NCBI GenBank assembly: GCA_013288985.1
Contig: JABDAT010000002.1
Location: 17,857-81,856 of the forward strand
DNA: 64,000 nt
Direction: 5' to 3'
Source: Alphaproteobacteria bacterium
Lineage (GTDB): Bacteria; Pseudomonadota; Alphaproteobacteria; Rickettsiales; JABCZZ01
Both the position numbers and the translations under genes were made by a program. Shown here piece after piece: positions 55,255 to 57,070 of the stretch (its first letter is position 1; the number at the start of each line of letters is the position of its first letter). A model generated the notes under the pieces. That model did not search any database. It was not told the origin of the DNA and saw only the letters and a program-made list of their open reading frames with translations.

Positions 55255-55518
55255 CTAGCTTTTATAAGATGTAATACAATCCTGTATTTCTGCCTCATCC
55301 ATACTACCTGTGTCGCAGTGGAGTATTTTTCCATAAGACTCTAATTCACGCACAGCGAAGTTTTCTTTGGTGGCTATATATTTAAAATAAGACTCTACAT
55401 TTTTCCCAGGCACAATAATAAGGACATGGAAGACAGCACCGGATTGCAGCTTACCTTCATGGTAAAGCACCACATTACCATTTTCTAAAGTTAGTTTCTG
55501 CTGAAAGCTGAGTGACAT
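55255..55518 (-). CDS. Hypothetical 87-aa soluble protein tightly coupled to the 488-aa paralog
   Basis: ATG lies 8 nt after the stop of the upstream 488-aa gene. Its 5' end lies inside the duplicated segment, and an 18-codon relic copy follows the other paralog. Confidence 0.55.
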   Translation of the reverse strand: MSLSFQQKLTLENGNVVLYHEGKLQSGAVFHVLIIVPGKNVESYFKYIATKENFAVRELESYGKILHCDTGSMDEAEIQDCITSYKS

Positions 55519-55789
55519 ACTGCTATTTAAGCAGAATGTCCGGCCTTGTTAAAGAAATTACCGATACCTTTGAAAATAACGTCACCCTTCCACCATACCA
55601 GGGCAATTCCGGCGACTGCAGCGGCCACTTCAAGTGCACGGATGAAGGTTTGTGAGTTATCCTTGGAATTGTCTTTAGATTTATCCGTATTATTGGGGTC
55701 TTCATCTTTCTTCTTAAGAAGATTACTCACTCCGTCAACAAGCCCTATACCCAGCACGGCTGTAGTGGCAATCTTGCCAGCGATAAAGT
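55463..55789. repeat. Copy 1 of a 327-bp dispersed duplication (3' end of the 488-aa gene + intergenic + first 18 codons of the 87-aa gene)
   Basis: Manual gap-free alignment to 57015-57341 gives about 40 mismatches in 327 nt (about 88% identity). Confidence 0.9.
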
Positions 55790-56993
55790 CTTTGGATTTA
55801 TCGGTATTACCGTTTGCGGAACTGCTGTTTGAGATCGTCGAGTCGCTGCTCTCCCCAGGACTTTTTTTTTGAGCAGTCCCACCACTTTGGATGCTATCGT
55901 CTTGCTTTAATAACCCTTTAATCCCAGATGTACCTAACGTTCCCTGGCTTCCAGCAGAAGACCCCTCGGCTTTTGCAGCAAACTCTTCAAAACGTTCGTG
56001 TGTGGCTCCTAGGCCGTAATTAATGAGATACGTTTTTAGAGCAGCATCACGTTCCTCAGGTGCAGCATGAGAAGATAAAACTATATTTTCAAGCTCTGCA
56101 GGCTTTCTATTAGAACCTCTGCCGTCAATTTCATATTCTCTTAATGCACTCATACGTTGTTTATATGCAGTTGCATAATCATTGCCGAGAATTTTACGAA
56201 CTATATCACCCTTATACCCTGGGTTTGCTTCTTTAATTTTTGAGAAGTATTCGCCTCTGGGCATAGTTCTATTAAATATAATCCCCTTAGGGGTTGTTCC
56301 AATGCCAACTATAAGATCACTGGTAATGGTAATAGGGCGCTTATCATTTTCAATAATTGTTTCAAGCTCTGGTCTTGCTGCAAGCATGCGATCAATGCCG
56401 TTAAGACCGATGCTATCCATCTGCCGATTAATATCTATCAGTGAATCTCTGAACGTTGCTTCATCTATTTTTCCTGTATCGTGCGCTAATTTTAACAAAG
56501 ACTGCATCCGTATAGTTTCAAATGCTGCGTAAACATACATGCGACCTGATAAATCATCGAACTCCAATTCTTCAGTGCTTTTATATTTGTCCCAAACGCT
56601 TCTGAGTTCTGGGGGAGGACTATCGATAGGAATTCCTTGTTTCATAAGCTTTTCTGCCAATTCCTTGCCCATACGCGTTTCAGCAGCAAAATTGCCAAAA
56701 ACATGTGCCAAAGCAACACCTTCAGGGTATAACGGGGCGGCAACCTCTTCAAATCCCGGAATATCCCAGGACAATTTGTATTTTTTATCGCCATCCCTCT
56801 CTACGGTAAAGCCTTGGAGGTCTTTGGGGTCAAAAAAGGCAGGGTTTTTAGACCTTCTCAGCGCATGTGCTACTCCAGCCGCATGCGGACATGCCCTTGC
56901 CATCGTCCCTTTATAGGCATTATAGGGCCAAAGAGATTTCTGAATAAAATCATCCGGGACGGTATTATCAATAGGGCGCTCAGAATCAGTCAC
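55527..56993 (-). CDS. Hypothetical 488-aa protein (paralog A): unique N-domain, shared central region, Ser/Gly linker, conserved C-terminal two-helix membrane module
   Basis: GTG start preceded by AAAGGAG. C-terminal FIAGKIATTAVLGIGLVDGV-(charged loop KKKDEDPNNTDKSKDNSKDNSQT)-FIRALEVAAAVAGIALVWW. Central motif GLNGIDRMLAARPELETII is shared with paralog B. Confidence 0.75.
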   Translation of the reverse strand: MTDSERPIDNTVPDDFIQKSLWPYNAYKGTMARACPHAAGVAHALRRSKNPAFFDPKDLQGFTVERDGDKKYKLSWDIPGFEEVAAPLYPEGVALAHVFGNFAAETRMGKELAEKLMKQGIPIDSPPPELRSVWDKYKSTEELEFDDLSGRMYVYAAFETIRMQSLLKLAHDTGKIDEATFRDSLIDINRQMDSIGLNGIDRMLAARPELETIIENDKRPITITSDLIVGIGTTPKGIIFNRTMPRGEYFSKIKEANPGYKGDIVRKILGNDYATAYKQRMSALREYEIDGRGSNRKPAELENIVLSSHAAPEERDAALKTYLINYGLGATHERFEEFAAKAEGSSAGSQGTLGTSGIKGLLKQDDSIQSGGTAQKKSPGESSDSTISNSSSANGNTDKSKDFIAGKIATTAVLGIGLVDGVSNLLKKKDEDPNNTDKSKDNSKDNSQTFIRALEVAAAVAGIALVWWKGDVIFKGIGNFFNKAGHSA

Positions 56994-57013
56994 AAATCAC
57001 TCCTTTTCCGCTG

Positions 57014-57070
57014 TTAAAGCACCACGTTGCCGTTTTTTAAAGTTAGTTTTTGCTGGAAGGTGAGTGACAT
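57014..57070 (-). pseudogene. 18-codon relic of a second copy of the 87-aa gene
   Basis: Encodes MSLTFQQKLTLKNGNVVL* versus MSLSFQQKLTLENGNVVLYHEG... in the intact copy. Homology stops exactly at the relic's stop codon. Confidence 0.6.

Follow-up and report, generated by a model that had tools for sequence, protein, structure and literature searches.

Why does a fragment of a small gene lie between two large paralogous genes, and what ties the intact copy of that small gene to its large neighbors? The question is raised by a locus on contig JABDAT010000002.1 of the alphaproteobacterial assembly GCA_013288985.1 (Rickettsiales, JABCZZ01), of which we analyzed a stretch of 64,000 nucleotides (nt; positions 17,857 to 81,856), here called the window. 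The minus strand of the window carries, in order, paralog B (516 amino acids [aa]), an 8-nt spacer, an 18-codon stub, 20 nt containing AAGGAG, paralog A with its GTG start (488 aa), another 8-nt spacer, an intact 87-aa gene, and a gene for a 152-aa membrane protein. We find that the stub itself is ordinary, probably a recombination leftover between tandem paralogs that shows two units merged into one operon. The main gain is a pairing that has gone unannotated, in which a two-helix membrane module at the C terminus of the large proteins is coupled to the small protein and kept across very different N-terminal domains (N-domains).

The geometry of the locus had been described in an earlier note on this DNA, and the description is borne out. 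The 87-aa open reading frame (ORF) begins 8 nt past the stop codon of A (55255-55518 versus 55527-56993), and the spacer plus the first 18 codons of the small gene recur after B (the stub at 57014-57070), the two spacers (ATAGCGGT after B and ATAGCAGT after A) being identical at 7 of 8 positions and the stub matching the intact gene at 47 of 54 nt and 16 of 18 residues. The TAA of the stub occupies the position of TAC (Tyr19) in the intact gene; homology ceases no more than 2-3 nt from this stop, and the ribosome-binding site AAGGAG (57005-57000) and the GTG of A, 20 nt on, follow. When the 87-aa protein was searched against the whole window (tblastn), the stub was recovered at E = 1e-6 with nothing else comparable, which argues that the resemblance is not due to chance, and no further copy of the module or of the small gene was found there.

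Furthermore, we observe that the similarity is not restricted to the stub. The alignment keeps continuous register from the final ~86 codons of A and B through the 8-nt spacers to codon 18 of the small gene, with the stub forming the 3' end of a ~325-nt tract of ~88% identity (A side, ~55465-55790; B side, ~57017-57342). Identity within the tract is 0.8-0.97 in 30-nt sliding windows, compared to ~0.4 on both flanks, and the borders are sharp. Overall, A and B are 36% identical (BLASTP), and it is indeed only in the C-terminal module that they are close, with 94% protein identity there compared to 22% between their N-domains.

Relatives of the small protein are few. A word-based search found one small-gene homolog and a profile search found 12, at 53-74% identity, while an exhaustive hidden Markov model (HMM) search of 1.84 billion protein cluster representatives returned 11 matches, eight of them further proteins of 87-92 aa (one large match, P0021, is repetitive junk). 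The family is absent from the 185,579 species representatives of GTDB, as well as from the viral contigs of IMG/VR and the plasmids of PLSDB.

With respect to the surroundings of these homologs, the pattern is uniform. In all 13 independent loci with visible upstream sequence (A in the window, L001, L003, L006, L007, L089, L090, L091, L092, L093, L094, L095, and L096, with L004, L005, and L008 being duplicates of L003), the small gene lies 4-27 nt 3' of a gene that ends in the module, which supports the earlier proposal of an ancestral two-gene unit, one gene big and one small. The module likewise precedes the distant small homologs P0018 (L095) and P0025 (L096). In L090, a 179-aa C-terminal fragment of a B-type gene survives, still with module and small gene. 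In L096, the farthest small homolog (E = 1e-9) stands behind a 309-aa protein whose N-domain is unrelated to those of A and B and whose last ~75 residues are the module. Since the pairing is kept with A-type, B-type, and unrelated L096 N-domains, it tracks the module and not the N-domain, and these comparisons indicate that module and small gene move as a cassette onto N-domains of all three types. Across loci, N-domains are 17-39% identical or unrelated, the module 30-94%, and the small protein 53-74%. The spacers, 4-27 nt in length, carry no obvious Shine-Dalgarno sequence, suggesting termination-reinitiation, with translation of the small gene probably coupled to that of the big gene upstream. 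L002, a Logan assembly of the same genome (SRR8422950), breaks at its position 1-59, 58 nt 5' of the small gene and inside the repeated module; in relatives, too, tandem units may often be collapsed or split by short-read assembly, which would mask similar arrangements.

The 87-aa ORF shows a coding signature in its relatives, with pN of ~0.2 compared to saturated pS of 0.65-0.97 over 10 homologs and omega values of 0.22-0.44 in the closer pairs, marking it as a real protein-coding gene, under purifying selection, of a small, rare, and unannotated family. Neither of the two refuting outcomes foreseen in the earlier note (large-protein homologs that never precede the small gene, or an ORF that is neither conserved nor coding in relatives) was observed. 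The small protein and 10 relatives have no match in Pfam or NCBIfam, the small protein itself has none above threshold in PADLOC or PHROGs, and profiles of both the small and the big families find no sequence match in the PDB. The members of the family are acidic (pI 4.9-6.0 across 10) and contain no hydrophobic segment (best 19-residue window of the 87-aa protein, +10.9 kcal/mol). An AlphaFold2 model built from a 12-sequence alignment (predicted local distance difference test [pLDDT], 85.4; predicted template modeling score [pTM], 0.74) has the order strand-strand-strand-helix-helix-strand-helix. The conserved motifs YHEG, FH, and HCD were considered as a possible metal or catalytic site, an idea that was dropped because H31, H67, C68, and D69 are not conserved in the distant homologs P0018-P0025. 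The loss of HCD there argues against catalysis or metal binding; YHE is retained.

The large proteins A and B have no signal peptide, a mostly helical N-domain that is modeled poorly, and a long low-complexity linker; neither finds anything above threshold in Pfam, NCBIfam, PADLOC, or PHROGs, and the AlphaFold2 model of A, from a 4-sequence alignment, is unusable for fold searching (pLDDT, 38.6). The module that follows the linker consists of two predicted Ala/Gly-rich helices with mean Kyte-Doolittle values of 1.6-1.7, joined by a charged, K/D/N/S-rich loop and followed by a basic tail. By a crude additive Hessa sum, the helices are marginal for membrane insertion (+3.7 to +5.5 kcal/mol across modules; +4.8 and +3.7 in B). 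The window module is 32-61% identical to modules elsewhere, and tail variants cut across A and B types. Helix 1 has an Asp (..DGV..) and helix 2 a Glu (..ALEV..) in the window, L003, L006, L090, L091, L092, and L096, while both residues are missing in L001, L089, L093, and L094, a covariation that suggests contact between the two helices. The coordinates of the locus are collected in Table 1.

Table 1. Features of the paralog locus, given as positions in the 64,000-nt window
Feature	Position	Strand	Remarks
Paralog B, 516 aa	57079..58629	-	B-type N-domain, low-complexity linker, and C-terminal hairpin module
Hairpin module of B, 86 codons	57082..57339	-	Two moderately hydrophobic predicted helices, charged loop, basic tail; 94% identical to the A module
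Spacer after B, 8 nt, ATAGCGGT	57071..57078	-	Shares 7/8 positions with the spacer after A
Stub of 18 codons from a second copy of the small gene, MSLTFQQKLTLKNGNVVL followed by TAA	57014..57070	-	Matches the intact gene at 47/54 nt and 16/18 aa
Junction segment, stub to A	56994..57013	-	Shine-Dalgarno AAGGAG (57005-57000) for the GTG of A; small-gene homology stops here
Paralog A, 488 aa, GTG start at 56993	55527..56993	-	A-type N-domain, linker, and hairpin module; homologs P0004 and P0005
Hairpin module of A, 86 codons	55530..55787	-	Kept in every big gene that precedes a small-gene homolog
Spacer after A, 8 nt, ATAGCAGT	55519..55526	-	No Shine-Dalgarno
Intact 87-aa partner gene	55255..55518	-	Product acidic (pI 5.5), predicted soluble, alpha/beta
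152-aa protein with two-helix glycine-zipper membrane segment	54751..55209	-	Last gene of the putative operon
Sigma-70-like promoter upstream of B, TTGTTA-17-TATAAT	58657..58685	-	10/12 match
~1000-aa protein, divergent from B, probable ATG at 58768	58708..61743	+	Two Gly/Ala-rich hydrophobic hairpins within a coiled coil

What might the small protein do for the module? From the way in which the pairing follows the module and not the N-domain, we infer, in agreement with the earlier note, a cognate function towards the module; as to its nature, the locus resembles most closely, by analogy, either a chaperone-client or an immunity-toxin gene pair. The reading that we tentatively prefer, as a possibility somewhat short of probable, is that the 87-aa protein acts on the hairpin as its holdase or chaperone. 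The acidic small protein would be synthesized in parallel with the big protein, through termination-reinitiation, and would bind the hairpin or the tail in the cytoplasm as a dedicated holdase, and it would keep the marginally hydrophobic hairpin soluble or uninserted until a target membrane or an export machine is reached. This fits because the small protein is acidic without a hydrophobic segment, because the module helices are marginal, because pairs of loci with more similar modules tend to have more similar small proteins (r = 0.78 between the pairwise identities, a correlation that may only mirror phylogeny), and because there is a precedent in the type III secretion system (T3SS) chaperone SscB, which binds the transmembrane segments of SseF and thereby averts mistargeting (PMC6110835). 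Transmembrane segments of secreted effectors are moderately hydrophobic (PMC6110835), and transmembrane effectors of the type IV secretion system (T4SS) have been reviewed (PMC12981334). Since the two modules are still 94% identical (dN 0.03), the lone small protein can plausibly serve both A and B. The earlier statement that one intact copy serves two paralogs stands for the 64-kb window, which contains a single intact small gene.

The likeness to T3SS and T4SS secretion chaperones is threefold. These are small acidic cytoplasmic proteins encoded beside their clients (here 87 aa, adjacent at 13 of 13 loci), their clients carry one or two moderately hydrophobic transmembrane helices and no Sec signal, and one chaperone is able to serve several related clients. 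In contrast to them, the small protein resembles neither the CesT/SycE, the tetratricopeptide repeat (TPR), nor the IcmS/IcmW type in sequence or fold (Pfam, NCBIfam, and Foldseek against the PDB), the conserved client element is located at the extreme C terminus and not in an N-terminal chaperone-binding domain, the known chaperones are larger than 87 aa, and no secretion system is found at the window locus. In the case of T4SS transmembrane effectors with their adaptors, the resemblance lies in the basic C-terminal tails and in relaxase or type IV coupling protein (T4CP)-like genes near the pair in L006, L089, and L096, which is circumstantial. The Eag (DUF1795)/prePAAR pairs of the type VI secretion system differ in that the small protein has no Pfam match and in that the client helices of prePAAR are N-terminal, next to PAAR, whereas the hairpin here is C-terminal.

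The foremost alternative to the holdase, which we consider unlikely, is that the hairpin is a membrane-damaging toxin element, pore- or holin-like, and that the 87-aa protein neutralizes it in the producer, as an immunity protein or antitoxin, with one copy protecting against both A and B. A small acidic gene coupled directly downstream is what many toxin-immunity pairs show, conserved acidic residues occur in both module helices and covary between loci, and the cassette is found on plasmids or conjugative elements and in an island of lower GC content. The neighboring ~1000-aa protein is weakly similar to XaxA and NheB, and in L096 the pair adjoins a gene resembling the conflict-linked DO-GTPase family, although that match is below threshold. 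CdiA-CT/CdiI and Rhs loci likewise have a small gene tightly coupled 3' of a modular large gene, tandem paralogous units parted by short recombination tracts, truncated leftovers at the junctions, and linkage to mobile elements. Polymorphic toxins of this kind, however, vary the C-terminal toxin and its immunity protein behind a constant N terminus, and here the arrangement is reversed, with the C-terminal module and small gene constant and the N-domain variable; indeed, the small protein is the best-conserved part (53-74%) and is not diversifying. Neither toxin, immunity, pre-toxin, delivery, nor defense domains were matched in Pfam, NCBIfam, or PADLOC. Pore-forming colicins share with A and B the variable N-terminal parts, a conserved C-terminal element with a hydrophobic helical hairpin, one or more small genes downstream, and a plasmid location. 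Their pore domain, however, comprises ~200 aa in ten helices and has a Pfam model, while the module has 86 aa, two predicted helices, and no Pfam match, and is thus far below colicin pore domain size. Moreover, colicin pore immunity proteins are integral to the inner membrane, unlike the soluble 87-aa protein, and the 152-aa membrane protein of the window accompanies the pair in close relatives only.

How, then, did A and B come to share a single small gene? The earlier note had read the stub as a duplication breakpoint, with A and B as the products. The geometry it described is right and the stub is a real remnant, but the split between A and B is older, B-type genes elsewhere keep an intact small gene, and the tract is much younger (dS ~0.6). 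The N-domain of A is closer to those of other A-type big genes (39% in L001, 35% in L006, and 32% in L003), and that of B to the big gene of L089 (30%), than A and B are to each other (22%), so the A/B split predates these genomes. The B-type signature (I/L)GxxDPR is found in L089, L090, L091, and L093, and all four of these genes are followed by an intact small gene, indicating that A- and B-type units each ancestrally had a small gene of their own.

The substitutions within the tract tell of a later event. Modules A and B differ by dS 0.63 and dN 0.03, and the stub differs from the intact gene by dS 0.61 and dN 0.05, while the flanks of the tract are unalignable at the DNA level; these values argue for a single, much younger common origin of the tract, and the low dN values point to strong purifying selection on both module copies since then. 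The stub carries five synonymous and two non-synonymous changes, and both amino acid differences (T4 and K12) are residues found in functional homologs. As T4 is the family consensus, that change probably arose in the intact gene. A discrete, sharp-edged tract of high identity in otherwise divergent genes, ending where homology ends, is also what gene conversion between tandem paralogs leaves behind, and since gene conversion is an ordinary mechanism, the tract is explained without a special function. Tract and stub would then be ordinary products of concerted evolution, and it is the module-plus-small-gene cassette that is new.

We consider it probable, on the strength of these comparisons, that two once-complete units had their 3' ends recombined and were later joined by deletion or insertion. 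In this history, anciently diverged B-plus-small and A-plus-small units would have stood in tandem, or one would have been inserted beside the other, in a low-GC island of ~7 kb. Their 3' ends (module, spacer, and start of the small gene) would have been homogenized or exchanged, by gene conversion or through the arrival of one unit from a related lineage. Next, codons 19-87 of the small gene of B would have been lost together with A's own upstream region, through a deletion or an illegitimate join, leaving a single operon, B-stub-A-small-152, under the promoter of B. The regulatory layout supports this, because B keeps the upstream motif and the promoter, A has just 20 nt with a Shine-Dalgarno, and no terminator lies between them. 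In a promoter scan, the sequence upstream of B (58685-58657) is the only good candidate for B-stub-A-small-152, and the interval between B and A contains neither a comparable promoter nor a terminator, so that we regard the five elements as a putative operon driven from upstream of B. The motif in question, AT-rich ATTAAT-N5-TAT(T/G)ACA(A/G), lies just 5' of the predicted -35 element at four loci (window, ~58675-58700 on the minus strand; L001, ~1335-1360; L006; and L003) and is a candidate operator or UP element; of the two window paralogs, B has it and A does not.

A single tandem duplication of a big-plus-small unit, with the junction inside the small gene, the stub dead since, and A and B diverging outside the module, is the history drawn in the earlier note, which we hold to be decidedly unlikely. 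Copying of a segment that begins 20 nt 5' of the start codon and ends at codon 18 of the small gene yields exactly the observed order, and the family upstream motif and promoter are retained by the upstream copy only. Yet this history needs additional events to account for the ancient divergence of A and B: the N-domains, at 22% identity, are each nearer to genes of other genomes than to each other, B-type genes elsewhere possess intact small genes, and a tract with dS of just ~0.6 and sharp edges on both sides would require later recombination at a minimum. In addition, a neutral stub would be expected to show ~4 non-synonymous changes in 7, compared to the 2 in 7 observed. The joining of two units is favored over a stub dead since the duplication because the pattern of change in the stub matches that of the functional module.

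Taken together, the joining history and the holdase mechanism form an account on which we are evenly divided between acceptance and rejection, and several points weigh against it. The excess of synonymous changes in the stub, under the null of a neutral stub and a selected intact gene, is suggestive and not significant (P = 0.06-0.20), and a duplication junction may instead have been kept alike by repeated gene conversion. Another intact small gene could lie outside the 64-kb window. The correlation between module and small-protein identities may merely mirror shared phylogeny, and the marginal hydrophobicity of the helices comes from an additive estimate. The model of the small protein finds no Foldseek match at E < 0.001 in the PDB or BFVD, and so resembles no known chaperone or immunity fold. 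Finally, genes for a secretion system are lacking beside the window locus, and no T3SS is present in the 64-kb window, which holds Tad-pilus genes.

The stub could also have been retained for a use of its own, as a short upstream ORF (uORF) that carries ribosomes over from B's stop codon to A's start codon and so couples A to B, a reading that may be combined with the others and that we deem improbable. Both stop/start junctions of the window (55505-55548 and 57057-57100, minus strand) fold into a hairpin that places the stop codon in its loop and pairs the AUG 3' of it (after A, -15.2 kcal/mol, z = -3.7; after B, at the stub, -13.3 kcal/mol, z = -2.8), which suggests translational coupling. 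The stub thus has the same AUG-sequestering hairpin as the real gene, as well as an intact ORF in the same start context (ATG at 57070), and few non-synonymous changes, and there is no promoter between B and A. Against this, A has a strong Shine-Dalgarno of its own, the hairpin is weak family-wide (consensus over 10 loci, -0.93 kcal/mol, with an unfavorable covariation term), and this is the single example of a stub that is known.

That the small protein ignores the module altogether, being a co-transcribed subunit or regulator of some other target (nucleic acid or the N-domains) that is adjacent through block inheritance, seems to us very improbable: its best fold resemblances, which are non-significant, are to Pur-alpha and PC4-like single-stranded DNA-binding folds, but the adjacency outlasts both replacement (L096) and loss (L090) of the N-domain, the small gene has no ribosome-binding site of its own, and an interaction with the N-domains is unlikely because three unrelated ones are involved.

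A bolder version of the holdase reading, unlikely in our estimation, is that module and 87-aa partner constitute a portable and undescribed C-terminal membrane-hairpin tag with a dedicated chaperone, placed by mobile elements in more than one phylum on unrelated N-domains, for delivery to or anchoring in a target membrane or for conjugative-type export. The window locus would then be a case of two clients on one chaperone, with their tags held identical by selection. If the small protein does hold or neutralize the hairpin, the pair would represent a new way to handle membrane-inserting segments that must not insert at home, and module plus small gene would provide a simple genomic rule for finding such proteins in uncultured bacteria.

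The ~1000-aa protein is a conserved neighbor of the pair. In both L089 and L006, a homolog is encoded upstream of the big gene in divergent orientation, and the C-terminal ~400 aa show conservation, with 55% identity to L089 and L090. Neither this protein nor the 152-aa protein has anything above threshold in Pfam, NCBIfam, PADLOC, or PHROGs, and the ~1000-aa protein has no sequence match in the PDB; for a weakly matching NCBIfam domain, 'FILTED', no literature was found. In NCBIfam, the ~1000-aa protein gives matches below threshold to XaxA (E = 7e-6, 25.5 bits) and NheB. Like toxins of the ClyA family (XaxAB/YaxAB and Nhe/Hbl) and T3SS translocators, it has coiled coils enclosing Gly/Ala-rich hairpins, and several hairpin proteins are encoded together. 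The scores, however, are all below cut-off (XaxA, 25.5 versus 125 bits; NheB, 17.1 versus 500; SseD, 16.6 versus 130), and in A and B the hairpin follows a long disordered linker and is not located inside a helical bundle. L090 (1-8189) is rearranged: besides the truncated B-type gene and its small gene, it has two long, oppositely oriented homologs of the gene for the ~1000-aa protein, a third, short piece of it that follows the small gene, and a DDE transposase, which indicates that this gene set is prone to recombination. In L001 (3-1286, minus strand), the gene divergent from the A-type big gene encodes not a homolog of the ~1000-aa protein but a leucine-rich-repeat protein of the ribonuclease-inhibitor type, as read from the repeat pattern in its translation. 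Leucine-rich repeats of that type are common in bacteria that interact with eukaryotic hosts.

The 152-aa protein is encoded 45 nt past the small gene, has an Ala-rich C terminus, and matches glycine-zipper and SseD-like models below threshold. Homologs of it adjoin the pair in two loci only, L001 (same order, 48% identity) and L007 (convergent, 33%), and it is not a universal part of the cassette.

Genes of mobile elements occur near the pair at several loci: the N terminus of a TrwC relaxase in L006, RepA_C and TrwC in L089, ParB_N in L095, and the transposase already mentioned in L090. In L096 (3904-8677), the 309-aa hairpin protein and its 90-aa small protein are flanked on one side by a DO-GTPase-like P-loop protein and on the other by a T4CP-like ATPase (TraG-D_C, 24.5 bits) with a polytopic membrane protein, and a TrwC relaxase is nearby; a Por_Secre_tail gene in the same locus suggests a Bacteroidota host. 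Judged by this gene content, the cassette is often on plasmid-like or conjugative DNA.

The window itself is chromosomal, with genes for AstA, the Tad-pilus proteins CpaC and CpaF, AroA-Cmk, GlmS, TopA, GatCAB, AddA, and thioredoxin. Its GatB has a best match of 75%, to a metagenome-assembled genome labeled Rickettsiales bacterium, which marks the host as a divergent alphaproteobacterium. The ~7 kb that hold the locus (~54.7-61.8 kb), between trxA and an MlaA-like lipoprotein gene, have a GC content of 0.40-0.44 compared to 0.46-0.50 in the flanks, and this low GC, together with an abutting truncated glutamine-synthetase-like ORF, suggests an acquired island. The ORF in question (270 aa, TTG start; 53920-54732, plus strand) overlaps the end of the thioredoxin gene, stops at the island edge, and matches positions 72-301 of 344 in the model of the glutamine synthetase catalytic domain without the N-terminal domain; it is probably a gene remnant. 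Elsewhere in the window, an AbrB/MazE-like plus PIN (VapBC-type) toxin-antitoxin pair lies beside gatB (49057-49691, plus strand), and the Tad-pilus cluster, with its CpaC secretin and CpaF ATPase, is located farther upstream (6272-14000, plus strand).

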